A DNA stretch of 64,000 nucleotides from NCBI GenBank assembly GCA_014729085.1, contig WJKM01000009.1, positions 126,590 to 190,589 on the forward strand, in the 5' to 3' direction. Under the pieces are notes generated by a model that was not told the DNA's origin, did no database searches, and saw only the letters and a program-made list of their open reading frames with translations. This document shows positions 1,925 through 55,861 of the stretch, piece after piece. This DNA comes from Candidatus Dojkabacteria bacterium (GTDB lineage: Bacteria > Patescibacteriota > Dojkabacteria > B142 > WJKM01). Within the stretch, counting starts at the first letter, position 1, and the number at the start of each line of letters is the position of its first letter. The translations under genes and the position numbers were made by a program.

Positions 1925-1955
1925 CTAATAAAAAGCAAAATTAATTTTGTAAGCT

Positions 1956-2966: not shown

Positions 2967-2979
2967 TTGAATTTTAAAT

Positions 2980-6464: not shown

Positions 6465-6474
6465 TATGTAGTTT

Positions 6475-38193: not shown

Positions 38194-38268
38194 GGCCCCA
38201 TAGTATAACGGCTAGTACACCGGGTTTTCATCCCGGCGATAGGGGTTCGATTCCCCTTGGGGTCACCA
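38194..38268 (+). tRNA. tRNA-Glu (anticodon UUC), CCA encoded; target of an integrative element
   Basis: GGCCCCA acceptor, anticodon stem-loop CCGGG-UUUUCAU-CCCGG, T-arm AGGGG-UUCGAUU-CCCCU, UGGGGUC-A-CCA 3' end. Confidence 0.85.
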
Positions 38269-39739
38269 TCATAGAATTTTTCACTTCAAATGCTTCATTT
38301 AACTCAACTGACAATGGTTTTGTTGGTGTTGTAAAATTTTCATTTTTGTATATCAATCCTTGAGGAAATATGAATTTTTCGAACTTATTTTGCTGAAATT
38401 CATCCATCTTTGTCCATGCTTTACTCATATTTTTTAAAAGAACAACGCTAAATTTTATTAATTTCTCCTCGTCTTTCTCTGGGTCTGAGTACCTAGTTAG
38501 CTCAATATCAATTTTAGAAATCTTTTCTTCTAAATCTCCAATATACCTTTTTGATAACTTGTCGTTATAAATACCATTTAAATTTTTCTCAACAACTTTA
38601 TCTTGTTTTGCTCTTAATGTTCTTTTTTCTTTCTTAAGTAGATTTACTTTACTTTGTATTTCCTTGGTCCGATTTTTCCAATTTAAGATAATTGCTTCTT
38701 TTACCAATTTACCAACATCTTTCTTTAGTTTTATCTCTTTTAGATACTCTATAAAATTCTCTTCTACATCATACTTCCCTAAATTTATTCCACTACACTT
38801 AGTGCATCTATAATAACCATATTTTTTATATTTCCCCTGAGACCAGTTAGAAGTTAAGTAATTTCCACATTTTGCACATCTCAATACTCCTCTCAATGGA
38901 AAATCAGGATTAATCTTTTTATAAATTGGCAACTTTTTTGCTTTCCCATCCAAAATTAACTGCACGATATTGAAAAGTTTCGGAGTAACTATTGGTTCAA
39001 AACTACCTTTTAAATTCAATCCCATACTTGGCACATCAATATATCCCTTATAAACAGGATTTCTAAGCATTTTATAAAAGTGTGATTTACTTAACTTTTT
39101 ACCATTTTTCTTTTTCATTCCTATCTTATTAGCGTACTGCCTAACCTCTTCTTGACTTTTGTATCCTTTAGATATCTCTTGAAATACCTTTCTAATCTTA
39201 GGTTTTAGTTCTTTTACTGGAACAATGTTTGAGTTTCCACGTCCTCCTATATTCTTATATCCATATGGAGCCTTAAAAATATACCTACCTTGCTTAAGAG
39301 CCTCTACCATTCCAGCTTTAGTTCTATCCGCCCTGATTTCATTATCAAGCTGAGCGATATTTGCCATGGTATTTTCCATAAATCTTCCTATTGGATTGTC
39401 TTCAAAAGGCTCTGTTATAGAAATAACTTCGATTCCACAACTTCTAAAGAAGATTCTCAACTGTCCATAATCTGTGGAATTTCTTGAAAGTCTATCAACC
39501 TTGTATATCAATAAGGCATCATATTTCTTATCATTCAGTTTACAAAACCTCATCATTTTCTGAAGTTCCGTTCTGTCTACAGTTTTTGCACTTTCACCTC
39601 TTTCCACAAAAACCTTCTCAACTTCTATATCATTTTTTGAAGCATAATCTTTACAAAGCCTTTCCTGTGATTGAAGACTCATACCCTCTTCAGCCTGTTC
39701 GGTTGTGGACACCCTACAGTAGATTATTCCCTTTTTCAC
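38228..39739 (-). CDS. large serine recombinase (integrase)
   Basis: N-terminal resolvase catalytic domain GIIYCRVSTTEQ...LLIYKVDRLSRN, recombinase domain, Zn ribbon RCAKCGN...YYRCTKC, coiled coil; 503 aa. GTG start. The last 13 codons (MMVTPRGIEPLSPG) are the reverse complement of the tRNA-Glu 3' end. Confidence 0.85.
   Translation of the reverse strand: MKKGIIYCRVSTTEQAEEGMSLQSQERLCKDYASKNDIEVEKVFVERGESAKTVDRTELQKMMRFCKLNDKKYDALLIYKVDRLSRNSTDYGQLRIFFRSCGIEVISITEPFEDNPIGRFMENTMANIAQLDNEIRADRTKAGMVEALKQGRYIFKAPYGYKNIGGRGNSNIVPVKELKPKIRKVFQEISKGYKSQEEVRQYANKIGMKKKNGKKLSKSHFYKMLRNPVYKGYIDVPSMGLNLKGSFEPIVTPKLFNIVQLILDGKAKKLPIYKKINPDFPLRGVLRCAKCGNYLTSNWSQGKYKKYGYYRCTKCSGINLGKYDVEENFIEYLKEIKLKKDVGKLVKEAIILNWKNRTKEIQSKVNLLKKEKRTLRAKQDKVVEKNLNGIYNDKLSKRYIGDLEEKISKIDIELTRYSDPEKDEEKLIKFSVVLLKNMSKAWTKMDEFQQNKFEKFIFPQGLIYKNENFTTPTKPLSVELNEAFEVKNSMMVTPRGIEPLSPG
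38255..38268 (+). repeat. attL core (direct repeat copy 1, inside tRNA-Glu 3' end)
   Basis: Exact 14-mer CCTTGGGGTCACCA. Confidence 0.7.
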
Positions 39740-39888
39740 TTTTTATTCTCTTGTAAATATAAGTCAATTATCAGATTCGAAAAGCCATTAATTTGTTCTA
39801 TCAAAGAATCGATTTGATCTTGATCTTTGAAACCTAAGTTTTTCAACCTTTGACATAATACCTTATAGCTTTCATCAATTTTTTGCAT
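39736..39888 (-). CDS. small ORF (50 aa) translationally coupled to the recombinase; candidate RDF/regulator
   Basis: Hand-found: MQKIDESYKVLCQRLKNLGFKDQDQIDSLIEQINGFSNLIIDLYLQENKK. Its TGA overlaps the recombinase GTG start (GTGA). Below the ORF-track size cutoff. Confidence 0.3.
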   Translation of the reverse strand: MQKIDESYKVLCQRLKNLGFKDQDQIDSLIEQINGFSNLIIDLYLQENKK

Positions 39889-39983
39889 AGGCTAAAACAA
39901 TATACTGTCTTAGCCTGAGTGCCTCTCAGCGTCTAATTAATATTTAAAATTAGTTTAATATCCTGCTTTTTTTAGCTTAGATA

Positions 39984-40817
39984 CTAAACTTTGTAAACAT
40001 CTTCGAGTTTCATATTTACGATTTTTCCATCTCTTTTTGTAATTTGCACATTTGAGTAATTTTTGCTTTTAATTTGGTTGATTAAATCAAGTTCTGTTAA
40101 TGCTTTATCTGTATTATTTTCTTCACCATATACAGTGTAGGATTTATCAATATTTTTTTTAATTTTTATTTGCTTATAAGCACTATCCCTAATAATATTT
40201 ATGATTTCCTTTTCTTGTTGTGTTAGCTTTTCGTTCATTTCCTCAATATATTCACTCAACTCTTTATAATATGAAACTTCTATTCCGATTCCTGATTTTT
40301 TTATTGCTTCTATAACTATTTCATTAAAATTGAAATATACAAAAGAGTCATGTTTAGTCATTAAGTATGCAAAAGAATTTATATCAGAAAAATATACATA
40401 ACCTTCTGATGTAATTACTAGATAAATCTTAACTGTTCCTATTACACTTAAGAAAAGTATATCTAGAGGTGGGTTTGTTACACTGTGCTGTTTTTCTAGA
40501 TTTTTATAAAAGTCCTTATCATAAAAAATATGTTTTAGATTTTGAAGTTGTTCGTTTGTTAGATTATATTTTCTAGCTTCATGTATGCATTGTAGATAGG
40601 TTAGATCCTTTATGCTGAATTTTCTCCACCCCTTTGATTTATCTCTTGAGTCTACTAACATTTCATCATTATCTAAAGAATTTATCTGCCTGTAAGTGAG
40701 TACACTATCTTTGACAGTATAAACCCTCTCTTCAAATGACTCGATGAAATCAGAACAATCTTTTCTCTTTCTGAGTCCCTTATATTGTTCTATTAAGTTT
40801 GGTGTAAGTAAAATCAT
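39984..40817 (-). CDS. hypothetical protein (element cargo)
   Basis: 277 aa, no recognised motif. Confidence 0.4.
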   Translation of the reverse strand: MILLTPNLIEQYKGLRKRKDCSDFIESFEERVYTVKDSVLTYRQINSLDNDEMLVDSRDKSKGWRKFSIKDLTYLQCIHEARKYNLTNEQLQNLKHIFYDKDFYKNLEKQHSVTNPPLDILFLSVIGTVKIYLVITSEGYVYFSDINSFAYLMTKHDSFVYFNFNEIVIEAIKKSGIGIEVSYYKELSEYIEEMNEKLTQQEKEIINIIRDSAYKQIKIKKNIDKSYTVYGEENNTDKALTELDLINQIKSKNYSNVQITKRDGKIVNMKLEDVYKV

Positions 40818-40894
40818 GGAATTATATGTTAATGTATAATTTATCTTACATGAATAGAATTATACAGTCAAGTATAATTTAAAGAGTTTTAAAA

Positions 40895-41275
40895 CTATGA
40901 AGCTGCAATTATTGAAAGTATCTTTGTGGTTTGTTCTTTTGTAAGTTCTGGATGAGGGTATATTCCTTTTCTGTAAGCTGTTATTATTCTTTCAATTAAG
41001 TTGAAAGGAATAGTCTTTGTCTGGTCCGTTGTCTCGAATCTAATTTGAACAGGGAACCTACCTTGCCAAGCATTACCTTCAATATTAATATTTGGAGCTG
41101 TAGTAGGTTTGTAGGGACCTGAAAATTCGAATGTTGATGTGTTGTACAAAAAGAGATAATCTTCAAGAGTAATTTTCATCATACTAGCTTTGACTGCTTC
41201 TTCTTCACCAAAAAGCATACGTTCAAATACTTCATCTTTTGTTTTGTCGTTGCATCTAAAAATATAACCTTTCAT
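40895..41275 (-). CDS. DCD (Development and Cell Death)-like PUA-fold domain protein
   Basis: Alignment by eye to plant DCD domains, hedged. GYIFRCNDKTKDEVFERMLFG ~ G(V/F)IFMCxxxTxxEClxxxLFGLP; LFLYNTSTFEFSGPY ~ LFLFNYSDRKLHGIF; NINIEGNAW ~ NINPYGW; PVQIRFE ~ PAQVQIRV; TKILSIIAAS ~ SKLISLLAS. 126 aa; start overlaps upstream gene stop (ATGA). Confidence 0.5.
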   Translation of the reverse strand: MKGYIFRCNDKTKDEVFERMLFGEEEAVKASMMKITLEDYLFLYNTSTFEFSGPYKPTTAPNINIEGNAWQGRFPVQIRFETTDQTKTIPFNLIERIITAYRKGIYPHPELTKEQTTKILSIIAAS

Positions 41276-41694
41276 TTTCTTACCTTTTTAGTTTCTAAAT
41301 GATTTTGAGTAATTGCAATAATATACATGTACTTACCAGCATAGAAATAAAATAATCTGGAAGTTTGAGCCCCTTTATGCTCTCTCAACTCTTCTACATC
41401 TTCTGGTAATTTCCTAAATAGCTTCTTATATTCTCCACTACAATATACCCTTTGTCTTTTAATATTATTTTTATCCAATGTTGTATTATTACACCCGCCT
41501 ATTGTTCTGATATCTTTAACAAACCTTTTGGATGCACTACCTGACAATGAAGATATTTCACTAATCTTATCATTAAAAAATTGAAAAGATATTAAAAAAG
41601 GTTCCCCTTCAGGATCTCCTCTATATGGATTTAAAGCAACTTTTTCGGGAATATATTTATTTGTAGCTGTTGTCTTTGGATCGGGTATTTGCAT
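41272..41694 (-). CDS. possible RelE/HigB(Gp49)-fold toxin-like protein
   Basis: C-terminus SRLFYFYAGKYMYIIAITQNH resembles the RelE/HigB C-terminal beta-strands (R-I-I-Y-x-F...Y-L-L-x-I). Weak. Overlaps both neighbours (translational coupling). Confidence 0.3.
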   Translation of the reverse strand: MQIPDPKTTATNKYIPEKVALNPYRGDPEGEPFLISFQFFNDKISEISSLSGSASKRFVKDIRTIGGCNNTTLDKNNIKRQRVYCSGEYKKLFRKLPEDVEELREHKGAQTSRLFYFYAGKYMYIIAITQNHLETKKVRK

Positions 41695-42221
41695 TAAGAA
41701 GACTTTTTAATTAAAGAAGAATAGTAAGCCTTCATATCTTCCAAACTAATAACATTATTTGAGCTAACAGATGCATGAATTTGCCCCCTTGCATTCTGCC
41801 ATGGATCTTCGTTATGTGACAACTGTTCTAAATAATCGCCATCATATTTCCCATATACCCTCCATATCTCCTCTAGTAAGTCCTGATTAGGTATATCTGA
41901 AATTTCTGCATCATTTACTTTCAGTTCAATTGGTCTATATCCATATTTCTTATATTTGTTGTATACTACCTTAATTGCAGGACCATGTACCCATGCTTCA
42001 ATTTCTTCTTTGAATATTGGCTCTTCCTTGTATACCAGATGCCAAGCTTGTGAATAGTACAAGAGCTTTTGTAATTGTTTATTTGTAATACTCTTACCTT
42101 CTTTGGACGCTTTCCAAATAAAAAATTTAGCGATATCTAATGCTGATTTCGTTTTTTGTTTTTTTGGTTTATTCATAAAAAGAAAGTAAGAACTTAACAT
42201 TATTATAAACGTAATTTTCAA
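41694..42221 (-). CDS. Panacea-domain (DUF4065, PanA/SocA-like) antitoxin-like protein
   Basis: KQLQKLLYYSQAWHLVYKEEPIFKEEIEAWVHGPAIKVVY matches the DUF4065 core (LQKLLYYaQ..hL...g.PLF.e.feAW.hGPV). Confidence 0.6.
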   Translation of the reverse strand: MKITFIIMLSSYFLFMNKPKKQKTKSALDIAKFFIWKASKEGKSITNKQLQKLLYYSQAWHLVYKEEPIFKEEIEAWVHGPAIKVVYNKYKKYGYRPIELKVNDAEISDIPNQDLLEEIWRVYGKYDGDYLEQLSHNEDPWQNARGQIHASVSSNNVISLEDMKAYYSSLIKKSS

Positions 42222-42239
42222 CTTTTCAATTCACTTTTA

Positions 42240-43289
42240 TCACTTTTTATAATCCAAATACTTCTTAATCTTATTATATTCTAAACACTTCATGTAGTTC
42301 TCCATATATTCGAAGTCTGGTTGATTTTGATTATTCATAGGTAACATTATTTTCTGTCGTTTTAATCTTGCTGTACCCATCTTGTAACCATAGCCATATT
42401 TAGCACGTTGTCTTGTTATCTGTTGAGATATAAATATACCTATATGTTTAGATGGGTTATTTAACCGTAATTTTCTACAATCATTTGAAAACAATGCCTC
42501 GTATGAATGATAAAAAGAATAGCCAACAGACCCATTTCGATTTACAGAAAGGCAACCTGCTTCTTTCGTTTTATTATCGTTGCTTACAAAATATCCGATA
42601 CCATTATTATTTGCAGTTGATGATACATAAGGCGTATTACCTGATATTCTTTCCTTTGCATAAATATCACGTCCAGATTCAATAGTGGCTACATCTTGAA
42701 TAAAAAACTCACCCCATTCTTTATCTTCTAATGGCTCAACATCTTTATAATCCTGCAATTCTGCTAATCTTTTTGAAACAACCTTTTTGTATTTATCCAA
42801 CTTATTTTGTTCTTTTTGCCTCATATAGGCTTCCATAAATTCATAGTCTGGGTTGCATTGTGAGTTGGTTGGTAAAAGTATTTTGCTTCTTCTCAATCTG
42901 GTTAGGGTTGCACCATTACTGCCCCAATTGAACTTATCCATTTGTCGAATGATTAAGGGGATAAGAAATTGTGCTATATCTTTGTTAAGGAACTCACTTC
43001 TTAAAACTTGGATATTCTGCCCTGTGTAAAACGATTTAGGCTGGTAGAAAACGGTTTGTGTATCAAGTCCAATTGTAATTACATTCCCTTCATCTAATTT
43101 GAATTTTTCTGCTTGCTTACCAATAAATGAATCCCACCCGTTATCTTTCTCAGAACGAGTTATATAAGGTGTATTACCTGTCTTATTACTTAATTTGTTA
43201 CGGTCGATACTACTTGATGAAGAATCAATATCAAAAGTATCTTCAAAAGTAAATTCCTTCCAGTTTTTATCTTCTAAACTTAATTTCAT
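42240..43289 (-). CDS. restriction-modification specificity subunit (HsdS-like; BcgIB-like)
   Basis: Two target-recognition-domain halves, each followed by a conserved TRLRRSKILLP/ARLKRQKIMLP ... PDYEFME/PDFEYME block; 349 aa. Confidence 0.75.
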   Translation of the reverse strand: MKLSLEDKNWKEFTFEDTFDIDSSSSSIDRNKLSNKTGNTPYITRSEKDNGWDSFIGKQAEKFKLDEGNVITIGLDTQTVFYQPKSFYTGQNIQVLRSEFLNKDIAQFLIPLIIRQMDKFNWGSNGATLTRLRRSKILLPTNSQCNPDYEFMEAYMRQKEQNKLDKYKKVVSKRLAELQDYKDVEPLEDKEWGEFFIQDVATIESGRDIYAKERISGNTPYVSSTANNNGIGYFVSNDNKTKEAGCLSVNRNGSVGYSFYHSYEALFSNDCRKLRLNNPSKHIGIFISQQITRQRAKYGYGYKMGTARLKRQKIMLPMNNQNQPDFEYMENYMKCLEYNKIKKYLDYKK

Positions 43290-43291
43290 AG

Positions 43292-45190
43292 TTATTTATC
43301 GTCATTTTCAAATAAATAATCTCTGCCTTGCATAATCATATTAAACTCAAAGGTAAGGTAATCACCTATAGTTTGCTCAAAGTCTTCTGGCTTTGGTATT
43401 TCGTCATTAAAGTAATAGAAAGAATGTAGCCATTCGTCATCTGGTTCTATGGTTGTTTTCACCATAAATTTAGTATCTGCTGGTGCATCATGTAGCCAAC
43501 AACTTAGTAAATGTTCTTTTCTTTCTTTTGCTCTCTCAGTTTCTACAAGTCCGATATGCTTACTTACCACAAATCCATCATCTTCAAAGTTAATAAATTT
43601 ACAATACTTTTTGAGGTTATGTGGTTTATGAGATGTAAATATGGCTATGCATGGATTAGTTCCAATACCATAGAATGTATCCTTATTTAGTGTAATTACA
43701 CCTTCCAAAGTATGTTTTTCTAATATTCTTTTTTTAACCTGTCTATCTTCTTTTGTTTTACCTACCATAGTTGATTGAGGAATTATGACAGCTGCTCGTC
43801 CTTTGTCAGTTAGACTATCAAGTAAATGTTCAATGAAATGTATTTCTGATAAATGTGCAGTATCTTTTCCTTTGGCTTGTGAATAAGGAGGATTCATTAA
43901 ACCTACAGTATAATTATTTTTCCTCATCTCTTCTGCACTTCTCTTGAGAAAGTCATCTTTTAAAAGATTACTCTTTCCATCTCCACGTAAAATCATATTA
44001 GTAGTTGCAATGGCAAACATATCTTCTCTAATTTCTATTCCGTGTATTTGTTCTCTTTTAATTTTATTCTGTTTATTCTTATCTGCCTTCTTTAACATCT
44101 TATACATTGCGGTAATCAAAAAACTTCCTGTACCACATGTGGGGTCAAAGACAATATCATTTGGTTTTATATCCAATAAATCACAAAATAATTCAGTAAT
44201 ATGACTAGGAGTTAATACAACACCCAAAGTTTGACCATCACCACCACTATATCTAATAAATTCACCATAAAAACGTCCTAGAACATCCTCTTTAGAGTTT
44301 GCTACAACGCTATCAAAAACATTCTTTTTTAAATATTCAGTAAAGTATTTCAGCGGTGTTTTCTCTAGTCTTTTATCTACCTGATTAAGTATAGTTCTAT
44401 CCATTACAATATTAAATTGACTCAAAACTTGCTCCTTTTTGATTTCTGGCTTTACCTCAACACGTGTCATGTGTGTAGATAAAGCATCAAATATTATATT
44501 TCCATCTGTTTTTACGCTATCTCCTTTTAATAAGTCTGGAATATCTGGATTCTCATTTAAAGCTAGGAGAATAGCAGATACGACAAGGGGTTTTTCCTTA
44601 TCTCCAAGTTGTCCATAGTTTCTTAAATCTTCGTGAAGTGCTTTCGATTTCTTTAGTATTACTTCTAATTCAACCGTTTCGGGTGGCGTTTCATTAAGTA
44701 CCTGTTCTTTATAGTATCGTACGATATTTTCTTTAGAAAAATTTTCAAAATTTTCAACTGGTTCTAATAATATATATTCGTTTTCATTGACATATATAGG
44801 TCGAATCATGTGATGTTTCTCATCACCAGAACAACCAAAAGCAAATACCTTTTTGAAATTTGTTTTCTGTACTATTTGCCTAGCATAGTGCAAAGCCCCA
44901 TTTTCTGCATATTCAGTTATCGATTTTGTATCTGTTGCGAGATGAGAGTTGCTCTCATCTTCATATCTTGCTTGTTTGTCTAAATCAGCTTTATCCTCCA
45001 TTACAAGAATAAACTCATCTGATTTAGCTGTAAATTCTGGAAAGCCTACATTCCCTGTACCTTTCTTTGATGAAGTTTTTAGTGCATTTTCTATCTCTTT
45101 AATCCCACTTCCATTTGGTGTAAATTTAATGCCCACCTTGCCAAGTAATTTACCAACAAAGAAGTCAGTTATTTTTTCATTTTTACTCAT
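43292..45190 (-). CDS. fused endonuclease/N6-adenine methyltransferase subunit (BcgIA-like Type IIB/IIG; alternatively HsdM)
   Basis: Gamma-class MTase motifs FDPTCGTGSFL (motif I) and NPPYS (motif IV); N-terminal region with candidate PD-(D/E)xK (SDEFILVMEDK). 632 aa and 349 aa partner sizes resemble BcgI A/B (about 637/341 aa from memory); no HsdR is present in the element. Confidence 0.65.
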   Translation of the reverse strand: MSKNEKITDFFVGKLLGKVGIKFTPNGSGIKEIENALKTSSKKGTGNVGFPEFTAKSDEFILVMEDKADLDKQARYEDESNSHLATDTKSITEYAENGALHYARQIVQKTNFKKVFAFGCSGDEKHHMIRPIYVNENEYILLEPVENFENFSKENIVRYYKEQVLNETPPETVELEVILKKSKALHEDLRNYGQLGDKEKPLVVSAILLALNENPDIPDLLKGDSVKTDGNIIFDALSTHMTRVEVKPEIKKEQVLSQFNIVMDRTILNQVDKRLEKTPLKYFTEYLKKNVFDSVVANSKEDVLGRFYGEFIRYSGGDGQTLGVVLTPSHITELFCDLLDIKPNDIVFDPTCGTGSFLITAMYKMLKKADKNKQNKIKREQIHGIEIREDMFAIATTNMILRGDGKSNLLKDDFLKRSAEEMRKNNYTVGLMNPPYSQAKGKDTAHLSEIHFIEHLLDSLTDKGRAAVIIPQSTMVGKTKEDRQVKKRILEKHTLEGVITLNKDTFYGIGTNPCIAIFTSHKPHNLKKYCKFINFEDDGFVVSKHIGLVETERAKERKEHLLSCWLHDAPADTKFMVKTTIEPDDEWLHSFYYFNDEIPKPEDFEQTIGDYLTFEFNMIMQGRDYLFENDDK

Positions 45191-45266
45191 TTGAGAATTA
45201 TATTTTTAAACATAAAGAAATTACTATTTTTATAATAAAGCACTTAGCTATAGATAGCAAACTACC

Positions 45267-46403
45267 TTAGACAAGGTTTATTTGACATTTTTCTGTATTC
45301 ATTTTTTCTTCAGATAGCAACTCATTAGTAATGGATTTGAACTCTGAAATTTGTGCATTAATTTCATTTCGAATATTTGAATATTCATAATCATCAAATT
45401 CTTTTAAAACTTTCTTACATAATTTCCATACTCTTTTAGTAGTAGTGTTGCTATATCTATTTTCAAAAATCTCTTTTGCCTTATGAATACCTAAATCACT
45501 ACATAACCTAAAACAAGTAATAATTGCCCATTCCTCACTTGGTTTTATGTCTTGGTCCCAAATATATTCATACATTCTTTTGATAGTAGGTAATCGCATA
45601 GGAATAAACTTAAATTCATCAGAAAACAAGCTCTTATTCAAATCATAGAGTAGTATCTTTTTGCTTAAACCACTATCAAAGATATCTTTAAGTGTAAGGC
45701 GTTCAACTTTCCTTCCTAATGCCCATGAATATTTTGCGTTTGTTCTCTGATAATTTTGCATGCGATATTCAAATCTTAGAATATTATTTTGTTTTAAATT
45801 CTGAACAAGTCCTTTTTCTTTATCTGTTTTATGATTAATCGCAACTAAAGAGGGGGCTTTTGCATATATTCCAATTCCCGTTGAAGTTGTAAATTCTCGA
45901 ATGGAAACACCATTTTCTTTATAATTTTCAAACTTTAAAGAGTGTCTCCATTTCCACCATAATCTTCTTGTAAATTCAATAAACTCAGTAGCTCCAACTG
46001 GACCATCTAGAATTATATTTTTCGATACTGTAGCAAAAGACACATAGCTATTTTTAAGTGCTTCGTTTGATATATTTATTCCCATATCATAAAGCTTTTT
46101 AGTAAAGTTACCTATAAAGTCATCGAAATCTTCATTTGATAACTCTTCTACATTATTTTCAAATAGTATTTTAGGAGCAGAAAATTCAATGTAAAGCTTG
46201 CCATTACCTCGAAAAGTTAAACTTGGATAATACTCACCTGTTGTATCTATCAACTGACCTTGCTTTATAAATCGTTTCTCCTTGATATCCATCTCGGGCT
46301 TTCTTAACATAAGGACTTTATAAACTTTCCCATAAATATCTTGAACTTGAATAGGTTTAATTATTTGATAGTTTGTTGTGTTTATTTTTATTGTATCTAG
46401 CAT
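45267..46403 (-). CDS. hypothetical protein (element cargo; possible replication/partition function)
   Basis: 378 aa, first large gene inward of attR; no confident motif. Confidence 0.35.
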   Translation of the reverse strand: MLDTIKINTTNYQIIKPIQVQDIYGKVYKVLMLRKPEMDIKEKRFIKQGQLIDTTGEYYPSLTFRGNGKLYIEFSAPKILFENNVEELSNEDFDDFIGNFTKKLYDMGINISNEALKNSYVSFATVSKNIILDGPVGATEFIEFTRRLWWKWRHSLKFENYKENGVSIREFTTSTGIGIYAKAPSLVAINHKTDKEKGLVQNLKQNNILRFEYRMQNYQRTNAKYSWALGRKVERLTLKDIFDSGLSKKILLYDLNKSLFSDEFKFIPMRLPTIKRMYEYIWDQDIKPSEEWAIITCFRLCSDLGIHKAKEIFENRYSNTTTKRVWKLCKKVLKEFDDYEYSNIRNEINAQISEFKSITNELLSEEKMNTEKCQINLV

Positions 46404-46684: not shown

Positions 46685-46698
46685 CCTTGGGGTCACCA
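46685..46698 (+). repeat. attR core (direct repeat copy 2, tRNA-Glu 3' fragment)
   Basis: Exact 14-mer CCTTGGGGTCACCA preceded by GATTT (near-match to tRNA GATTCC). Confidence 0.7.
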
Positions 46699-46709
46699 AA
46701 AAATAAAAT

Positions 46710-46737
46710 CCACCTTTATGGTGGTTTTTTGTTTTTT
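46710..46737 (+). terminator. rho-independent terminator (probably the original tRNA-Glu terminator displaced by the insertion)
   Basis: CCACC-TTTAT-GGTGG hairpin followed by TTTTTTGTTTTTTT, located 12 bp after attR. Confidence 0.5.
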
Positions 46738-47161: not shown

Positions 47162-50100
47162 ATGACCAAACCGCTCAAAAAGGTCTTGATTGAAACTATC
47201 CACATTATTCACAATACAGTAAAAAGAGTACAGCTAAAAAACTTAAAGCTGTATTTTTTTATTTTGCCTTTTTTGCTTTTAACATTTACACCTGTTTTTG
47301 CTCAAACGACAGACGAATATAATTACTCAGATTGTGGATTTGTTATCGATGATTCAGATTCAGGTTGTTCAGAAGCATATGGTAATTGGAAACTACAGAA
47401 AATAGGAAATAAAGGGACATCATTACTTTCTCCAAAAGACACTTTCTTGCCTTCTGTTACATGGGTTCCAGATTATAAAAACCTGAAAGGGCAGGTTGAG
47501 GTATTTGCAACCATTCCAAGAATTGAGGGAGAAAATTTGTCCGAAGTTGCTTGGTACAAAATAAAACATAGTGAGGGTACAAGCGATTATTTTGTAAATC
47601 AAAAAGAAAATGCAGGAGATATAGTATCACTTGGAATATATAATTTCGATGGAACCGAAGTTTCAATAGATTTATATGGATCTGGTGGTGAGGTAGTTGT
47701 GGCAGATACTGTTTGTTTTGGTAGATGCTCAATAGGTGACATAACTCCACCAAGGATTGAAGAAGTTAAAGGACATAGTTATATGGGAGAATTACATGTT
47801 CAGTCAAAAATAACAGATGAAGGGACAGGTGTAAAGAATGCTTATGTATCAATTCAGGGAAATATTTACCCTATGAATGCAAAAGGAGATATTTATTCAG
47901 CGATTGTTCCATATATTCCAGGAACTGATTTGGAATGGTATATTCTTACATATGACAACGCAGGAAATGAAGCTATATGGGAACCTGGGCGTGGATATGT
48001 AACAAGAGGGGGAGGTTTAAATTTAGGAGTACCACCTGAGGCTGTTGATTTTGTTTGCTATAAAGAAGAGTTTAATAATACAGTCCCACCTGCAACACCA
48101 GGATCAGATCCATGTGAATGGACAACAGGAGATCCTGTAAATACTGTAAACGGAAATTTAATGGAAAGTGTAAATTTAATAAATATTTCCGGACGTCCTT
48201 CAATTAACCTTACTATCTACTATAACAGTCAAGGTACAGGTCTCTCAATTTTCGGTGAAAGTTGGCTTTATGATTATAATTACCATGTAACAGAGATGGA
48301 TAACGCTGACTTCAGTGGGGCTTTTGTGCAATATCCTTCAGGTAGCAATGCAATGTTCGAAAACTTCAAGTCTCCAGATGGAGTAAGAGACAAACTTGAA
48401 AAAATAGGAGATGGGTATCTTCTTACTCTTCAAGATCAGACAAAAATCTATTTTGATTCAAATGGAGATATTTCTAGATGGGAAGATATTAATAGAAATG
48501 GTCTAAACTTTGAATACTCAGAACAGATTAAATTTGTAAATTTTTCAAAGCTGTCAAAGATAACAGCAGATTCAGGTAGAAAAATTACATTTGAATACAA
48601 TGATGTTGGTTTAGTTTCTCAAATAAACGCACCAGAGAATAAAATTATCAAATTCGAATACAATGACACAGATGATTTAATTAAAATAATCAAACCTAAA
48701 GAAAGAGGGATTATATTTGAATACGATAATCACAGCATTACAAAAAAAATCAGTCCACAGGGACATGCATACTACGAAAATATCTTCGATAATCAAAGAA
48801 GAGTTATAAAACAAGTTGCAGGTACATCATTTACGCAGGAATATATTTATAATGACAATGAAACAATAGTTAAAAATCTTAACGGTTCACAAGCTGTCTA
48901 TAGTTATAACGAGGATTACTTAATGGTCAGCAATACAGATGAAGTTGGGAATACCAAGACATTTGAATACAACAATAAAAAGCAGATAATAGCTGAAATC
49001 GACGCTGAAGGGAAACGATATGAATACACATATGATGAAAATGGCAACCAGATACATATAAAAGATCCAATGGGATATGAGATAGAAAGAGAATTCAATG
49101 AATTTAATAAACCTGTAAAAGAAATCAACCAGAATGGAAAAGAAACTAGATGGGAATATGACAAAAAGGGAAATTTAGTCAAAATAATTAACTCAAATGG
49201 CAACGAAAAAATATTCAGCTATAACGAATATGGACAACTAATTGAGCAAACAGACTTTAATGGAAATAAAACTGTTTTCAAGTATACAGCTGAAGGTGAT
49301 CTTAAAAAGATAATAGATGCAGATGGAAATGAAATTGTATATACATACGATGAACTTGGAAGAATATTGACTGAAACAAACAAACGTGGGATTACCTACA
49401 CATACACCTATGATGTAAATGACAATCTTCTTAAAATTGAGGGACCTCTTGGATATACAAAATCATTTGAATATGACAAAAATAACAGACTTATTAAAGA
49501 GACTGACTCTAAACAAGAAATGATTTCGTATACATACGACAATTCGGAAAATATTTCTTCCATCTCAAATCAACTGCAATTTGTTACGAGTATGGAGTAC
49601 GGATCAATGAACGAATTTGCAAAAGGAATAGATGCTGAGGGACATATAACTGAATATGCATATCATCCTACGTACAAAATATCTCAAGTTAGACAGGCAG
49701 CTGGAACCTCAAAAGAAGCTATTTCTAATTTTGAATATAACAACGTAAAACTTCAAAAAAGAATTATAGATGCAGAAGGAAAGATTACCGAGTTTGTATA
49801 TGATGATTTATATAGAATAGTTAAAAAAATTGGAGACGTGAACGGAATTGAAATTGAAACACGTTTTAAGTACAATCCTGTTGGAGCCCTTGTTAAACAA
49901 ATCGATCCAAACGGAAATGCAGTTGAATATACTTTAGATAATTTAGATAGAGTAATCGAGCAAAAAGATGCCGAAGGAAACATTACAAAGTACGAATACG
50001 ACCCGAACTCAAACATTATAAGCACAACCAATCCAAGAGGCTTTAAGACAAAATTTGAATACAATAAGTTAAACCAACTTGTAAAGCAAATCAATTCAAT

Positions 50101-53100
50101 TGGTGCAGAAACAGAATACGAATATGACGGAAATGGGAATTTAGTTAAACAGGTTAATCCAAACGAAACAAGTACCAAGTTTATCTACGATGAGCTTGAT
50201 CGAATGGTAAGAGAAGAAAAATACTCAGAAGAAGATGAATTGTTAATTCAAATAAGATATGAATATGACTTAAATGGAAACATAACCAAAATAATAAATC
50301 CAAGAGGCTTTGAAACAAAATTTGAGTACGATGCAGCGAATCAAAATACAAAGATAATAGATGCCTATGGCAACATTATTGAATTTAAATACGATAAAGT
50401 AGGAAACAAGATTGAAACAATAGACAGAAATGGAAATTCAACAACAAATGTATATGACGAACTTAATAGAATAGTTGCAGAGATAAATGCAGAAAATAAT
50501 AAAACAAGTTATGGATACAACAAAGTAAATAACTTAACAAACATAACTGATGCAAAAGGCAACATTACAACATTAAAATATGATGGAGTAAACAGACTTA
50601 TTCAAAAAATTGATCCTTTGTCTGGTGAAACAAAAAAAGAATACGATCCTGCTGGAAATGTTTTAAAAGATATAGATCAGAATGGTCATGAGACAATCAA
50701 TGAATATGACAAAATAAACAGACTAATTAAAACAACCAATGCAGAAGGAGGAGTAAAAGAAATAAAATATGACAAAAATAGCAATATCGTAGAAATAAAA
50801 GACGAAAATGGAAATATTTCTCAAAATACATACGACAAACTCGATAGACTAGTTAAAACAGTAGATGCAGAAAATCAGGTAACAAAATACGAATATGATG
50901 TAATGGGAAATATGATTAAAAAGACAAATCCAAGAGGATATGAAACAAAATATGAATACGACGCTCTAAATAGACTTACTAAAACTATCGATGCAAAAGA
51001 AGGAGAAACAATATTTGAATATGATGAAAACTCAAATGTAGTTAAAACAATAGACCCAAATGGGATTTCTACAAAACACATCTATGATAAGTTAGATAGA
51101 CTGATTACTAAAATAGAAGCTCATGAATCCCTCCTTCATCAAGATTCCGGAGGGCAGGCAGGTGGAGGAGAAGCTGATACCAATGTCACAACACAATATA
51201 AATACGACAAAGAAGGAAATATTATTGAAGTAGTAAATCCAAAAGGAAATTCAACAAAGTTTGAATACGACAAGATATACAGACAAACGAAAATTACAGA
51301 TGCAAAAGGGAACTATACAAAATTTAAATACGATGAGGTAGATAATGTAGTACAAGTAACGGATAGAAATGGAAATGTTTCTACAAAGGAATATGACGCA
51401 CTAAGAAGAATTGTAAAGGAAATAAATGCAGAAAACCATAAGACAGAATATAGATATGATCCAAAAGGAAATATTAAAACAACAATAGACCCAAGAGGAA
51501 ATCCAACAAAGTTTGAGTACGACAAAATAGACAGATTAACTCAGACAATAGACGCCCTGGGCGGAGTTTGGAAAACCGAATACGATGCAGTGGGGAATGT
51601 TTTAAAAGAAACAGATGCAAATGGACATGCCAATAAGTACGAATACGACAAAGTATACAGGACTACAAAACAAACAAATGCAGAAGAACATTTTTCAAAA
51701 TTCAAATACGATGAAAATGGGAATGTCATTGAGACGCAAGACAACAATGGAAATGTAACATCATTCACATATGATGAACTAGATAGACTTGTTAAAAAAA
51801 TAGATGCGGAAGATGGAGAATGGTTATACGAATACGATGCAGTAGGAAATCTTCTATCTGAAACAGATGCAAACGAACACACAGACACGTACGAATACGA
51901 TAATATGTACAGATTATCGGTTCTCACAGACGCAGAAGGAAATACAACAAAATATGTTTACGACCTAAATGGCAATACAGTAGAAATAATAGATGGGAAT
52001 GGAAATTCAACAGAGAATGAAGTTGACGCTCTAGACCTCGTTATCAAAGTAACAAATGCTGAAAACGAGACAACAGAATATACTTACGATAAAGAGGAAA
52101 ATAAGATAAATAAGATAGATCCGGATGGTGTTGTTACTCACTTTGATTACGACAAGATTTATCAGCTTGTTAAAGTAACTCTGAATTACAAAGATACAAA
52201 CTTTACTGACTTTGATACAAATGTAGACACAAGCTACGAATATGATCCAAATGGGAATTTAACTAAAATCACAGATCCGAAAGTAAATGCTACAACTTTT
52301 GAGTACGATGCTTTAAATAGACAAATAAAGGAAATAGATGCAGAAGGAAATATTTGGAGATTTGAATATGATCCTGTTGGAAATAAAACAAAGAGAATAG
52401 ATGCAAACGGTAATTCTACAGTTTATGGATATTACGCAGACGATCAACTTCAAAATATCAGTTATTACGATGGGACAAACACATCATATGAATACGATCC
52501 AAATAACAATAAGATAAATATGCAGGATAGAATTGGAACAACAGATTGGACGTATGATGCATTAAATAGAAATACTTATGTAAATGATGCATTGAACAGA
52601 GAACTCACATACACATATGATCCAGTTGGAAACAGAACAAGTATGAAATATCCTGACGGAAAAATAGTAAAGTATTCCTACCTAAAAAATGACTGGATAA
52701 ACACATTCACAGATCCAGAACAAGGAGTAGTTAAATACGATAAAGACCATGTAGGAAATACAGTATTTATAGATAACCCAAATCAGACACAAACAACAAT
52801 AGATTATGATCGTGTATACAGACCTACAGAAATTCTCAATGAACAAATAGAGCAGGCTGCAAAAACAAACTCCAGATTTGAATATACATACAACGAAGTA
52901 GGACTTAAAACAGAAGTAGAAGCAGAATATGCGTGGAGAAAACCAAGTGTAGTTAGAACAGAGTACGTTTACGACAAGCTAAGAAGACTAAAGGAATCGG
53001 AAGATTCAGAAAACAAGTATTACGAATATCTTTATGACAGAGCAAGCAATAGAACCCGGATGCAAACTAACGACGATGAAACAACACCAAACCAATATGA

Positions 53101-55342
53101 CGGAATAAAACAAGGCTATAAATACAATAATATAAATCAGGTAATAGAAATAATAGAAGAAGGTGTGAGTGATATAACGAAAAAAAGAACACAAGGAAGA
53201 AGTCAGACATTTATTTATTTAGAAAATACTCTAGGTTTAAGAAATAAATATCACAATTTGGTAAATGAAATTGAGGCTCAACGAGGAGGACATATACCCG
53301 AAGAAACAGCAGAAGAACTTCTAGATTTATTGGAAAGGTTAGAGATGTTAGAAGGAGAAGAGAGTACAATTCTTTATGAGGATGCGATATTAATAATTGA
53401 AGAAGTAATAACAATAATAGAAGACGAAGTAGTACATGAAGGAACATTAAACAGCTTGCTTGCAAAAGTAGATGATGTAGAGCTAGAGGCAAAAGAGAAA
53501 GGCAGAGAAGTTGAGTGGAAAGAAAAGAAAGAGATAAATACACAAAAAAAGAATCTACTGAAGACAACAACATTTAGATACGATAATAATGGAAATAGAA
53601 TAAACGAACAATGGACCATGCCTAACGGCAGGCAGACCGGATCAACAGGACCTGCCTACCAAGGATTTGATTTTGGATATGATCCTGAAAATAGATTAAC
53701 AATTGCAATGAACTATCAACAAAATGACACAGGGAACAGAGTAGATAGAGGAGTAACAACAATGAATTACGATGGAGATGGAAGAAAACTAGTTAAGGTA
53801 TTTGATCCAAAAAGTCCGTTGGGGGAATGGGCAGATCCAAATCCACTTGATCCAGCATATGGAGTAGATGGAGGAGCTAAGAACATAGAATACGTATACG
53901 ACAATCTAGATCCAGTAGCTGAATATAATACATGGAACTCTCAACACGACAACTTCTACCGTGCCAGAGGGCAGGCAGGTAGAGGAGACATGAATAGAAT
54001 AGTAATGATGCAAAACTTCAAATCAGGGACACAGGGTCAGCGTTATTGGTACCACTATGATGCTTTAGGTTCAACTGTGGGACTTACAAAACACTCAGGA
54101 CAGTCACACCACAACTATAGATACGGAGATTTTGGACTTATTGAGACTATTACTGGGAAATCTGGAAACACATCAGGAGGAACATTTACAGATCCACATA
54201 ACCACTACACCTACACAGGGCAGGAGTGGGATGACCATATGAATGTATATGAATTCTACTCAAGAACTTACGATCCCTATACCGGCAGCTGGATGAGGCA
54301 GGATGATTATAGAGGGGATATCTCAGATCCAATGTCACTTCATAGGTATATGTATGTGAATCAAAATCCTATTAATTGGTGGGATTTATATGGTTACAAG
54401 ACAAATAATATTCCTATTTTGGGTCCTATTAATCATAAAAGTAATCAAATTAATAAAAGTATTAATTATGAACCTACCGTACTTACTCAACAAATCATGG
54501 AGTCTGTCAGACTAAGTTATGATCCATGCAATCGACAAACTTTTGATAAAGGATTCTTAATACCTACCGAATTGGAATCTCTTGCTGGAGGAGCAGCATT
54601 TGTACATAGGATGGGTTATAATATGTCAGATGGATTGTTTCTTGGTTCAATTGAGAATACTATATATATGCAAGAATCACAGAAAGATTTTGCAAGAAGA
54701 ATTTTCGATCAAGAATATAGAGAGAATGCTTTATATCCAGAACGATATCCTTTAAGAAAAACAAGAGAAGATTGGAGAGAGTTTAATGACAAGATTACAT
54801 TTTCTCTTGGAGTAAATCCACACAAACAAGTAAATAATGGATTGGCAACAAACATATTTGAAGGAACAGTAAATTCACTAACAGATCCACAGCCTGTAGG
54901 TTCAACACAATGGACATATGACACATTAAATATGGGTTTTGAGGGATATATGGTGTATAGTACGGTTACAGCAATAGATGACTTTTTAATGAAGAGAATA
55001 CCTGGAAATAATTCTATAAGTAGAAGACCAGCACAAGATGTGGTGCAGTATGAGATGTATAAGGAGCAGCTCAAATCGCAGCAAGCAGCTACAGTATTTA
55101 CTCAAAATGGGGAGTTGAAACCAAACGTGATTAGTAATAGTCATAGCATTATCGATGGAAAAGATTTGAAAAATCCTAGTGTAATTAAAGAATTGACTAA
55201 AGATGGATCAAAGATAGATAGTTGGGAGAAAATGAGTACTGATTCATACCCTAGTCCATCGGGAGATTTTCAAGTTCATTATTATCAAAATAAGGATACC
55301 GGTAAGATATATTATAATATTGATTATAAGGCTAAATTTTAA
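47162..55342 (+). CDS. rhs: RHS/YD-repeat polymorphic toxin (signal peptide, N-terminal domain, YD-repeat shell, RHS core, variable C-terminal toxin)
   Basis: Signal peptide; DPVNTVNGNL plug motif; dozens of YD repeats (YEYDxxGNL...); RHS core end YDPYTGSWMRQDDYRGDISDPMSLHRYMYVNQNPINWWDLYGY (degenerate DPxGL); ~310 aa unique C-terminal domain. 2726 aa. Confidence 0.9.
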   Translation: MTKPLKKVLIETIHIIHNTVKRVQLKNLKLYFFILPFLLLTFTPVFAQTTDEYNYSDCGFVIDDSDSGCSEAYGNWKLQKIGNKGTSLLSPKDTFLPSVTWVPDYKNLKGQVEVFATIPRIEGENLSEVAWYKIKHSEGTSDYFVNQKENAGDIVSLGIYNFDGTEVSIDLYGSGGEVVVADTVCFGRCSIGDITPPRIEEVKGHSYMGELHVQSKITDEGTGVKNAYVSIQGNIYPMNAKGDIYSAIVPYIPGTDLEWYILTYDNAGNEAIWEPGRGYVTRGGGLNLGVPPEAVDFVCYKEEFNNTVPPATPGSDPCEWTTGDPVNTVNGNLMESVNLINISGRPSINLTIYYNSQGTGLSIFGESWLYDYNYHVTEMDNADFSGAFVQYPSGSNAMFENFKSPDGVRDKLEKIGDGYLLTLQDQTKIYFDSNGDISRWEDINRNGLNFEYSEQIKFVNFSKLSKITADSGRKITFEYNDVGLVSQINAPENKIIKFEYNDTDDLIKIIKPKERGIIFEYDNHSITKKISPQGHAYYENIFDNQRRVIKQVAGTSFTQEYIYNDNETIVKNLNGSQAVYSYNEDYLMVSNTDEVGNTKTFEYNNKKQIIAEIDAEGKRYEYTYDENGNQIHIKDPMGYEIEREFNEFNKPVKEINQNGKETRWEYDKKGNLVKIINSNGNEKIFSYNEYGQLIEQTDFNGNKTVFKYTAEGDLKKIIDADGNEIVYTYDELGRILTETNKRGITYTYTYDVNDNLLKIEGPLGYTKSFEYDKNNRLIKETDSKQEMISYTYDNSENISSISNQLQFVTSMEYGSMNEFAKGIDAEGHITEYAYHPTYKISQVRQAAGTSKEAISNFEYNNVKLQKRIIDAEGKITEFVYDDLYRIVKKIGDVNGIEIETRFKYNPVGALVKQIDPNGNAVEYTLDNLDRVIEQKDAEGNITKYEYDPNSNIISTTNPRGFKTKFEYNKLNQLVKQINSIGAETEYEYDGNGNLVKQVNPNETSTKFIYDELDRMVREEKYSEEDELLIQIRYEYDLNGNITKIINPRGFETKFEYDAANQNTKIIDAYGNIIEFKYDKVGNKIETIDRNGNSTTNVYDELNRIVAEINAENNKTSYGYNKVNNLTNITDAKGNITTLKYDGVNRLIQKIDPLSGETKKEYDPAGNVLKDIDQNGHETINEYDKINRLIKTTNAEGGVKEIKYDKNSNIVEIKDENGNISQNTYDKLDRLVKTVDAENQVTKYEYDVMGNMIKKTNPRGYETKYEYDALNRLTKTIDAKEGETIFEYDENSNVVKTIDPNGISTKHIYDKLDRLITKIEAHESLLHQDSGGQAGGGEADTNVTTQYKYDKEGNIIEVVNPKGNSTKFEYDKIYRQTKITDAKGNYTKFKYDEVDNVVQVTDRNGNVSTKEYDALRRIVKEINAENHKTEYRYDPKGNIKTTIDPRGNPTKFEYDKIDRLTQTIDALGGVWKTEYDAVGNVLKETDANGHANKYEYDKVYRTTKQTNAEEHFSKFKYDENGNVIETQDNNGNVTSFTYDELDRLVKKIDAEDGEWLYEYDAVGNLLSETDANEHTDTYEYDNMYRLSVLTDAEGNTTKYVYDLNGNTVEIIDGNGNSTENEVDALDLVIKVTNAENETTEYTYDKEENKINKIDPDGVVTHFDYDKIYQLVKVTLNYKDTNFTDFDTNVDTSYEYDPNGNLTKITDPKVNATTFEYDALNRQIKEIDAEGNIWRFEYDPVGNKTKRIDANGNSTVYGYYADDQLQNISYYDGTNTSYEYDPNNNKINMQDRIGTTDWTYDALNRNTYVNDALNRELTYTYDPVGNRTSMKYPDGKIVKYSYLKNDWINTFTDPEQGVVKYDKDHVGNTVFIDNPNQTQTTIDYDRVYRPTEILNEQIEQAAKTNSRFEYTYNEVGLKTEVEAEYAWRKPSVVRTEYVYDKLRRLKESEDSENKYYEYLYDRASNRTRMQTNDDETTPNQYDGIKQGYKYNNINQVIEIIEEGVSDITKKRTQGRSQTFIYLENTLGLRNKYHNLVNEIEAQRGGHIPEETAEELLDLLERLEMLEGEESTILYEDAILIIEEVITIIEDEVVHEGTLNSLLAKVDDVELEAKEKGREVEWKEKKEINTQKKNLLKTTTFRYDNNGNRINEQWTMPNGRQTGSTGPAYQGFDFGYDPENRLTIAMNYQQNDTGNRVDRGVTTMNYDGDGRKLVKVFDPKSPLGEWADPNPLDPAYGVDGGAKNIEYVYDNLDPVAEYNTWNSQHDNFYRARGQAGRGDMNRIVMMQNFKSGTQGQRYWYHYDALGSTVGLTKHSGQSHHNYRYGDFGLIETITGKSGNTSGGTFTDPHNHYTYTGQEWDDHMNVYEFYSRTYDPYTGSWMRQDDYRGDISDPMSLHRYMYVNQNPINWWDLYGYKTNNIPILGPINHKSNQINKSINYEPTVLTQQIMESVRLSYDPCNRQTFDKGFLIPTELESLAGGAAFVHRMGYNMSDGLFLGSIENTIYMQESQKDFARRIFDQEYRENALYPERYPLRKTREDWREFNDKITFSLGVNPHKQVNNGLATNIFEGTVNSLTDPQPVGSTQWTYDTLNMGFEGYMVYSTVTAIDDFLMKRIPGNNSISRRPAQDVVQYEMYKEQLKSQQAATVFTQNGELKPNVISNSHSIIDGKDLKNPSVIKELTKDGSKIDSWEKMSTDSYPSPSGDFQVHYYQNKDTGKIYYNIDYKAKF
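48400..53200 (+). repeat. tandem YD-repeat coding array within rhs
   Basis: Recurrent xYxYDxxGN(L/I)xxxxD units at protein and DNA level; these generate the spurious antisense ORFs listed in the track. Confidence 0.8.
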
Positions 55343-55351
55343 CTTTTAAAT

Positions 55352-55861
55352 ATGAAAAAACAAAATATATGGGGTAACTTTAATAAATTAATAAATTCTG
55401 ACATATCTATTAAAGATTTTGAAGAATGGATCTATACAGATAAAACTATAGAAAAGATAATTGGTAAAGATAATTACGTCACACTTGTATCAATGAATTA
55501 CACTAAATCTGATAGTAAAGAAAAAGTACAAAAATACTTAGTTGAGTTATTTGAATCGTTAGAACCCGAGTTATATGATAAGTATAGAGTTTATAATATA
55601 TTAAAAGGGATGTTAGATGGACAAAAGGATTTAGTATCTGGGTGTAGAAGGTTAGTTCAATTAAGAAAAAGAGGACTGGAATTTATACCTAAAATTTTTG
55701 TAGGTTTTGATTCTGAACTAGATGATGTTCCTCTTCCTGAGCAATATTCACAATGGAACAAAAATGCTTTAGGAGAGAAATTAAAAAAAATTGATTATTA
55801 CAGGGAAGATATTATTAAATATTCAAAGAAATTAATTAAGGAATTAGATATTAGAAAATAA
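55352..55861 (+). CDS. putative cognate immunity protein for the rhs C-terminal toxin
   Basis: 169 aa, cytoplasmic, starts 9 bp after the rhs stop; position-based inference. Confidence 0.5.
   Translation: MKKQNIWGNFNKLINSDISIKDFEEWIYTDKTIEKIIGKDNYVTLVSMNYTKSDSKEKVQKYLVELFESLEPELYDKYRVYNILKGMLDGQKDLVSGCRRLVQLRKRGLEFIPKIFVGFDSELDDVPLPEQYSQWNKNALGEKLKKIDYYREDIIKYSKKLIKELDIRK

Follow-up and report, generated by a model that had tools for sequence, protein, structure and literature searches.

The window analysed here, a 64,000-nt stretch of a Candidatus Dojkabacteria contig (WJKM01000009.1), encodes a stand-alone development and cell death (DCD) protein of 126 aa on its minus strand (40895-41275). 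In the clade of candidate phyla radiation (CPR) bacteria to which it belongs, this DCD protein is persistently attached to restriction-modification (RM) systems with an N6-adenine methyltransferase. Such a system lies within 0-3 genes of the DCD gene at all independent informative loci (17/17, the window included). We propose that the protein would serve its neighbouring RM enzyme as an accessory reader of foreign base modifications. Taken as a whole, this explanation has a probability of about 0.48, the confidence of its least certain step. The conflict-system function that the first-pass annotation of this DNA had suggested is one that we infer from genomic context.

A bare DCD domain with a PUA-like fold

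The DCD gene is an unbroken open reading frame (ORF) of 126 codons with an ATG start, preceded at 7-8 nt by a Shine-Dalgarno-like AAAGGT. Its start overlaps the stop of the upstream 140-aa gene by 4 nt (ATGA). The deposited annotation of the identical protein, from a metagenome-assembled genome of Candidatus Dojkabacteria (WS6, CPR), reads hypothetical protein. Against Pfam-A, the protein matches PF10539 (Dev_Cell_Death) with E=2.3e-20 and 73.1 bits, far above the gathering threshold of 27.8. Residues 3-122 align with profile positions 2-125 of 126 and thus with the whole domain, its N-terminal IFxCN..T..E block and its LFG, LFL(Y/F)N and FPxQ(I/V) blocks included, as the full-length alignment to plant DCD domains first drawn by eye had indicated. 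The sequence blocks picked out in that alignment turn out to be invariant or near-invariant columns among 34 relatives, where I5, R7, C8, K11, T12, E15, G23, F42, L43, G53, W70, F74 and Q77 are invariant. The domain fills all 126 aa, and Pfam detects no catalytic, nuclease or NTPase domain. PADLOC models give no defence-system match for the protein, with only a chance-level hit to AbiEii (E=0.015). Since the 126 aa hold neither a nuclease nor an NTPase domain, the protein is no restriction enzyme by itself. It is not a type IV restriction enzyme either, as the reader is neither fused to nor obligately paired with an effector, and classical RM subunits are the sole nuclease partners that recur beside it.

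The structure of the 126-aa protein was predicted with high confidence. Its closest structural neighbour is the EVE protein PH1033 (score 13.8), followed by the YTH domains of Mmi1, CPSF30, MRB1, YTHDC1/2 and YTHDF1 (10.7-12.5), the EVE-HNH enzyme VcaM4I (10.2), THYN1 bound to 5-methylcytosine (5mC) DNA (8.7), the N-domain of Thermococcus gammatolerans McrB (8.0) and ASCH (7.8). According to the entry descriptions, VcaM4I, THYN1 and the TgMcrB N-domain bind DNA carrying 5mC/5-hydroxymethylcytosine or N6-methyladenine (m6A), and YTH domains bind m6A. On fold, the DCD protein belongs to the EVE/YTH branch of the PUA-like superfamily, in agreement with the initial fold proposal, and no better match to an unrelated fold arose. 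We regard its assignment as a DCD domain with a PUA-like β-barrel of EVE/YTH type as virtually certain. Viral structures in BFVD yield weak, generic PUA/ASCH-like matches only (best E=9e-4). A sequence search of the Protein Data Bank (PDB) detects no solved DCD structure. When the clade profile was compared with PDB chains, nothing scored at E<1, and the top hit was a chance match to Dda helicase (E=1.5).

The search for homologues returned 36 proteins with 47-62% identity, all of them bare domains of about 125 aa with a precomputed PF10539 match. Those with named hosts come from Dojkabacteria, Woesebacteria and WS6. When 1.84 billion cluster representatives were scanned by HMMER with the profile of the clade, 1773 of them matched at E<=1e-3. 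The clade itself scores above 120 bits and is followed by a clear gap. Below the gap, scores of 70-100 bits per domain form a continuum in which eukaryotic DCD, one stand-alone Methanobacteriaceae protein, tandem DCD and fusions of DCD with PD-(D/E)XK-like domains are mixed. The eukaryotic members (plant, green-algal and dinoflagellate) score about 75-88 bits per domain, with proteins of Zizania, Kingdonia, Solanum, Panicum, Cymbomonas, Neomeris and Polykrikos among those looked up.

One family of about 250 aa (P0066, P0095, P0101 and others, alignment A2; locus L038) combines an N-terminal DCD with a C-terminal domain. The latter carries invariant D-G-H, S..E..ID.WL, DF and E-x-W-G motifs, looks like a PD-(D/E)XK domain and is covered by no Pfam model. 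These fusions are probably solitary modification-dependent nucleases. At L038, housekeeping genes surround the fusion.

Linkage to N6-adenine-methyltransferase RM systems

Loci of relatives were gathered by exact-protein look-up and pattern scans, and redundant contigs were collapsed. The pattern scans were narrow and amount to no census; they contributed 3 loci from GTDB species genomes and 15 from metagenomes. Neighbouring genes were classed by precomputed Pfam annotation, Pfam scans and BLAST against annotated HsdR, HsdM and HsdS. Five loci are uninformative: L018, L020, L021 and L024 lie on contigs of 1-2.2 kb, and in L025 the sequence breaks off 17 nt upstream of DCD.

The linked RM systems are mostly type I, with type IIB, type IIG and M-S fusion systems also represented, and their position relative to the DCD gene varies. 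HsdR directly precedes DCD in L001 (with L002 and L007), L003 (with L004 and L013), L005 (with L006), L008 (with L016), L014 and L027. One gene separates HsdR from DCD in L009 and L035 (with L036). The order is R-M-S-DCD in L023, and the hsd operon is divergent from DCD in L011, L017, L022 and L028. DCD follows HsdS in L019 and precedes HsdM (N-terminus) in L010 and L015. An M-S fusion is followed by one gene (259 aa) and DCD in L012, a type IIG enzyme by one gene and a tandem DCD in L034, and the type IIB system of the window by a toxin-antitoxin (TA) pair and DCD. Variation of this kind is the mark of genes that are functionally linked, and not of a single arrangement passed on by descent.

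Clustering of all neighbours within two genes on either side found only two families, HsdR and methyltransferase/S, to be common to independent loci. Two other candidates for a conserved partner fell away. The genes of about 250-275 aa located 3' of DCD are mutually unrelated (KilA-N, Cthe_2314-like HEPN and unknowns), and those of the relatives bear no similarity to the 277-aa protein of the window. Likewise, the proteins encoded between HsdR and DCD (about 200-260 aa) show no mutual similarity and no Pfam match, and so do not form one family.

Most relatives belong to type I operons on the chromosome, where no recombinase gene lies close by. Unrelated genes are inserted between hsdM, hsdS and hsdR in several of these operons (L001, L005, L008, L027, L028 and L035), with DCD at the operon edge. 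The embedded genes encode a reverse transcriptase (RVT), an OLD-like ATPase-TOPRIM protein, AAA_13, AAA_15/21, AbiEii and DUF2321 proteins and an HsdR with an SLFN/AlbA_2 domain.

Two loci show unusual DCD genes. In L034, genes for a 1194-aa type IIG enzyme (MmeI/Eco57I-like) and for a second methyltransferase-like protein precede that of a 383-aa protein with two tandem DCD domains (6079-7230). In L014, whose HsdR shares 93% identity with the one in L001, the DCD ORF that follows (2305-2508) has only 67 codons, and this copy has probably suffered a frameshift or is in decay.

With its recurrent RM adjacency, the DCD protein of the window falls into the class of RM-associated, stand-alone EVE/DCD readers. 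We consider a functional coupling of DCD to RM likely.

The tRNA-Glu island and its cargo

In the window, the DCD gene is the last of five tightly packed minus-strand genes, which encode a BcgI-like RM enzyme, its S subunit, a Panacea antitoxin, the 140-aa putative toxin and DCD. The Panacea and 140-aa genes overlap by 1 nt, and the gaps further upstream measure 18 nt and 2 nt. The first gene (43292-45190) encodes a fused restriction endonuclease and N6-adenine methyltransferase of 632 aa. It matches PADLOC REase_MTase_IIG PDLC03602 at E=8.5e-180 (positions 4-632 of 637) and PF02384 N6_Mtase at E=7.8e-38, and a P51-E52...E65-D66-K67 motif is visible in its N-terminal extension. The 349-aa specificity (S/B) subunit (42240-43289) matches PF01420 Methylase_S in two stretches (E=2.6e-33) and PADLOC Specificity_II PDLC03591 at E=2.2e-55 (positions 9-330 of 341). 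No HsdR-like ORF occurs in the island or nearby. The same two-gene unit, again without an R gene, recurs at 53% identity on Clostridium and Lactobacillaceae plasmids, whose hosts are Clostridium perfringens, Ligilactobacillus and Lactiplantibacillus. The RM cassette therefore seems to have been exchanged horizontally between Firmicutes plasmids and a CPR bacterium. As judged from sequence, the window system is a two-gene, BcgI-like type IIB system lacking HsdR, because of the plasmid units without R, the N-terminal motif and the sizes of its subunits. The name BcgI-like rests on these sizes, the subunits of BcgI measuring 637 and 341 aa.

All five genes are part of a mobile island, which upholds the initial description of a bacterial mobile element with RM and TA genes. 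A 14-nt direct repeat, CCTTGGGGTCACCA, occurs at the 3' end of a plus-strand tRNA-Glu (UUC) gene predicted by ARAGORN (38194-38268; attL core 38255-38268) and again at 46685-46698 (plus strand, attR). The window contains exactly 2 matches to this sequence, against 0.00 expected from 100 shuffles. The second copy is followed by a hairpin and T-run terminator (46710-46734), the displaced terminator of the tRNA. On the strength of repeat and terminator, the genes from 38228 to 46403 constitute an 8.4-kb island integrated at tRNA-Glu.

The island integrase is a large serine recombinase (38228-39739, minus strand) with Resolvase, Recombinase and Zn_ribbon_recom domains, whose 3' end overlaps the tRNA-Glu gene; this is an uncommon integrase type for a tRNA target. 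Next to it lies a 50-aa ORF (39736-39888, minus strand) with no family match in Pfam, NCBIfam or PADLOC, which judging by its position is possibly an excision or directionality factor. It is followed by a 277-aa backbone protein (39984-40817, minus strand) with a weak MerR-like helix-turn-helix (MerR_1, E=0.002, below the cut-off). At the other end, the island carries a 378-aa conserved hypothetical protein (45267-46403, minus strand), which matches no Pfam, NCBIfam or PADLOC family and has homologues with 54-66% identity on Patescibacteria-type metagenome contigs. A promoter scan showed no enrichment over shuffles.

Directly upstream of DCD lies the pair formed by the Panacea (SocA-like) antitoxin-domain protein (41694-42221, minus strand) and the putative 140-aa toxin (41272-41694, minus strand). 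The Panacea protein matches PF13274 SocA_Panacea at E=3.5e-20 and NCBIfam SocA_antitoxin at E=9e-19, the latter under that model's cut-off. Its homologues in L031-L033 measure 162 aa, and its true start is probably an internal ATG near 42176. Among 5.8 billion clusters, only one family is homologous to the 140-aa protein (51% identity); its genes lie directly 3' of a Panacea gene in three contigs (L031-L033), all without DCD. The 140-aa protein matches Gp49/HigB-like (E=0.0039) and MAG6450 (E=0.007) families weakly, and its single-sequence AlphaFold model is unusable (pLDDT 41.6). Like the PanAT systems of Kurata et al. (PNAS 2022, PMC8832971), the window has a Panacea-domain gene with a small partner; unlike in those systems, DCD lies outside the conserved pair and the 140-aa partner is in no defined toxin family. 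We put the partner forward as a candidate new PanT toxin family.

One of the three contigs, L032 (JGI Ga0307928_10019599, 1-4677), is a sister island, with a recombinase that shares 55% identity with that of the window, a 54-aa ORF in the slot of the 50-aa ORF and, in the same position, a 269-aa backbone protein that is 33% identical to the 277-aa protein over its full length (E=1e-42). Its cargo comprises, in order, an R.HinP1I-type restriction gene, Panacea, the 140-aa homologue and, in the DCD slot, a 139-aa gene unrelated to DCD (hhalign probability 0.2%). The likeness of the two suggests that small CPR islands form a family which shuttles RM and TA cargo. In addition to the window, L019 and L025 carry DCD on serine-recombinase islands with RM cargo.

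Neither the Panacea gene nor the 140-aa homologue occurs beside DCD at about 20 loci of relatives. Because the pair is found elsewhere without DCD, it appears to be an independent insert, a separate addiction or abortive-infection module placed between the S gene and DCD. The pair recurs without DCD and the operons of relatives carry unrelated inserts; hence the TA adjacency is incidental and the RM adjacency is the signal. Of the RM and TA context noted at first pass, the RM part stands, as the sole recurrent neighbour, and the TA part does not.

Outside the island, the window contains housekeeping genes and an RHS toxin locus. The latter encodes a 2726-aa RHS/YD-repeat protein (47162-55342) with 17 RHS repeats, DUF6531 and Golvesin_C, followed by a 169-aa ORF of no family (55352-55861) that is probably its immunity gene. 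A 300-nt part of the RHS 3' region (54090-54389) is repeated with 83% identity 2.5 kb downstream (56588-56887), in what looks like an orphan toxin-tip cassette. A 453-aa protein (15896-17257) matches MATCAP, the microtubule-associated tyrosine carboxypeptidase (E=6e-25), which is odd in a CPR bacterium. The class II ribonucleotide reductase (12089-15781, 1230 aa), with a barrel domain matched in two stretches and a TSCPD domain, may contain an insertion or intein.

Proposed role, alternatives and relation to known readers

We propose that the DCD protein, itself devoid of a catalytic domain, would capture a flipped-out modified base in a conserved pocket. This pocket would be built from the invariant N-terminal segment R7-C8-N9/K11-T12/E15 and the aromatic residues F22, W70 and F74. 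Acting in trans with the neighbouring RM enzyme, the protein would give it a modification-dependent, type IV-like input by marking or recruiting DNA with foreign modifications that are beyond the reach of the classical RM arm. The proposal follows the model that Bell, Wolf and Koonin (BMC Biol 2020, PMC7641849) put forward for stand-alone EVE/DCD proteins linked to RM. Relatives at 70-100 bits join DCD to a C-terminal PD-(D/E)XK-like domain, as modification-dependent nucleases do with their readers, which suggests that DCD serves as a targeting module for modified DNA, in agreement with that paper. These fusions, together with structural neighbours that are the readers of type IV-like enzymes, argue for foreign modification feeding restriction, a direction that we put at just under even odds.

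Several observations weigh against this proposal. By secondary-structure order only, L21-F22-G23, W70 and F74 fall at W377, W428 and L439 of YTHDC1, so that the predicted correspondence of the pocket with the YTH m6A cage is one of topology. Comparison of the clade profile with the YTHDC1 YTH domain by hhalign (sequence checked against 4r3h) gives a probability of 0.1%, and the relationship to YTH is therefore structural only. The RM-linked stand-alone clade (alignment A1, 34 proteins) has a median isoelectric point (pI) of 6.7 and a net charge of 0, whereas most nuclease-fused DCD domains have a pI of 8.6-9.8 and the YTHDC1 YTH domain one of 9.6. Such neutrality is hard to square with a protein that binds a nucleic-acid polymer on its own; the protein may instead dock as a subunit or have a small-molecule ligand. 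The partner nucleases belong to three unrelated architectures (HsdR, BcgI-A N-domain and MmeI-like), and a direct hand-off from reader to nuclease would therefore need three different interfaces. What all linked systems have in common is a gamma-type N6-adenine methyltransferase with a target recognition domain (TRD), whose product is m6A. At L037, a distant stand-alone DCD (P0068, 102 bits; 6001-6372) comes immediately after the genes of a Cache/PAS histidine kinase and a response regulator, and no RM genes are seen nearby. Because P0068 lies by a two-component system without RM, the rule of RM adjacency holds for the close clade and not necessarily for all prokaryotic DCDs. Finally, the literature searched yielded no binding or restriction experiment on any prokaryotic DCD, nor a report of a modified base bound by any DCD domain; later papers only cite Bell et al. 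(BMC Biol 2020, PMC7641849).

The constancy of methyltransferase and TRD beside three nuclease architectures, and the neutral charge of the clade, would suit a writer-reader pair, in which DCD reads the self mark N6-methyladenine made by the adjoining methyltransferase. In DNA, it could sense hemimethylated or fully methylated sites and so aid maintenance methylation or damp restriction. Alternatively, it could read free N6-methyl-dAMP (m6-dAMP) from degraded methylated DNA, as in the PUA-Cal-HAD system; an m6-dAMP-sensing PUA domain has recently been reported. In either form, DCD would serve to regulate the RM system or to report on it, and foreign modifications would not be its target. However, the DCD protein has no effector or output domain and RM is its sole conserved partner; Bell et al. 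favour the opposite polarity (PMC7641849), and DCD-nuclease fusions would kill their own hosts if a common self mark were what DCD generally reads. This makes the writer-reader pair doubtful, though it is the alternative we take most seriously. A more specific version, in which DCD binds m6A from the adjoining methyltransferase, as DNA or as m6-dAMP, and thereby informs the RM or TA cargo of the island, strikes us as unlikely.

DCD might instead read modified RNA (tRNA, rRNA or mRNA) or have a housekeeping role, its RM adjacency reflecting mere co-residence in defence or mobile islands. RNA binding is known from YTH and from many PUA/ASCH domains, a modified-RNA ligand has been predicted for eukaryotic DCD (PMC7641849), and P0068 adjoins a two-component system. 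We nevertheless hold this to be improbable, as RM lies within 0-3 genes at every informative close-clade locus and in several arrangements: on the same strand after R, before M, or divergent. Considerably less probable still is a tripartite Panacea module in which DCD would be the third component beside toxin and antitoxin, as a chaperone or sensor. In its favour, DCD runs in the same direction as the Panacea and 140-aa genes and overlaps the latter by 4 nt, and EVE domains are present within TA-like modules (PMC7641849). Yet the pair does without DCD in three other contigs, the slot in L032 is taken by the unrelated 139-aa gene, and the relatives' loci lack both pair members; on this context we rejected DCD as a conserved PanAT member, and the reading is largely refuted. 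We give equally little credence to island self-protection or anti-restriction, whereby DCD would coat m6A sites or the island's modified DNA against the type IV nucleases of a new host. The absence of an enzymatic domain and the carriage of the gene on serine-recombinase islands with RM cargo agree with this purely speculative idea, but most relatives sit in chromosomal type I operons, away from any recombinase. The foreign-modification reader is our preferred explanation.

The premise of the first-pass annotation that a prokaryotic DCD near RM would be news does not hold: the idea is correct but already published. Bell, Wolf and Koonin (PMC7641849) assigned DCD to the PUA/EVE superfamily. They found prokaryotic DCD to be rare, mostly in archaea and hyperthermophilic bacteria, and tied to type I RM, PD-(D/E)XK and McrB-like domains and methyltransferase fusions. 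Beside type I RM systems they described both prokaryotic DCD proteins and EVE proteins that stand alone, and such readers were predicted to target modified DNA for restriction. The present clade shares with these RM-linked readers PF10539, the PUA-like fold, the stand-alone layout by hsdR/M/S and the predicted role. It differs in its hosts, Dojkabacteria, Woesebacteria and WS6, as the paper makes no mention of CPR or Patescibacteria (0 occurrences). Moreover, the partner in the window is a BcgI-like type IIB and not a type I system, and the gene rides a serine-recombinase island at tRNA-Glu.

Comparison with other members of the fold reveals further differences. With YTH (YTHDC1, Mmi1 and CPSF30-YTH) and EVE proteins (PH1033, THYN1 and the VcaM4I N-domain), the clade may share topologically matching conserved aromatics, but these proteins have no detectable sequence similarity to the DCD clade, which is neutral and not basic. 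Modification-dependent nucleases (EVE-HNH VcaM4I, YTH/EVE-McrB and DCD-PD-(D/E)XK) have the reader fold in common with the window protein, which differs in carrying no nuclease or NTPase domain. Like the plant DCD proteins, among them the N-rich proteins (NRP) and other proteins of stress and cell death, the bacterial protein matches the plant-derived Pfam model over its full length. Whereas eukaryotic DCD proteins are multidomain or multi-DCD proteins of 250-1200 aa, the bacterial protein is a bare domain, tied to DNA restriction by its context.

Our analysis leaves the published picture unchanged and adds to it the CPR (Dojkabacteria/Woesebacteria) clade, linkage to type IIB and type IIG systems and a small tRNA-targeting island, together with a high-confidence model and the observation of neutral charge. 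After about two decades of work on plant stress and cell death, the ligand of DCD is still sought. The bacterial protein is the domain in its minimal form, and its context restricts the candidates for that ligand to modified DNA bases, with m6A as the foremost. A bare DCD protein is convenient for binding screens and crystallography, and operons of RM and DCD are small enough for reconstitution in E. coli. If DCD were indeed an m6A reader, the CPR clade would provide the first defined DCD ligand, and the plant DCD/NRP cell-death proteins would be predicted m6A readers. In a weaker variant of this idea, the CPR DCDs would be the prokaryotic group nearest to the eukaryotic domain and would mark its source.

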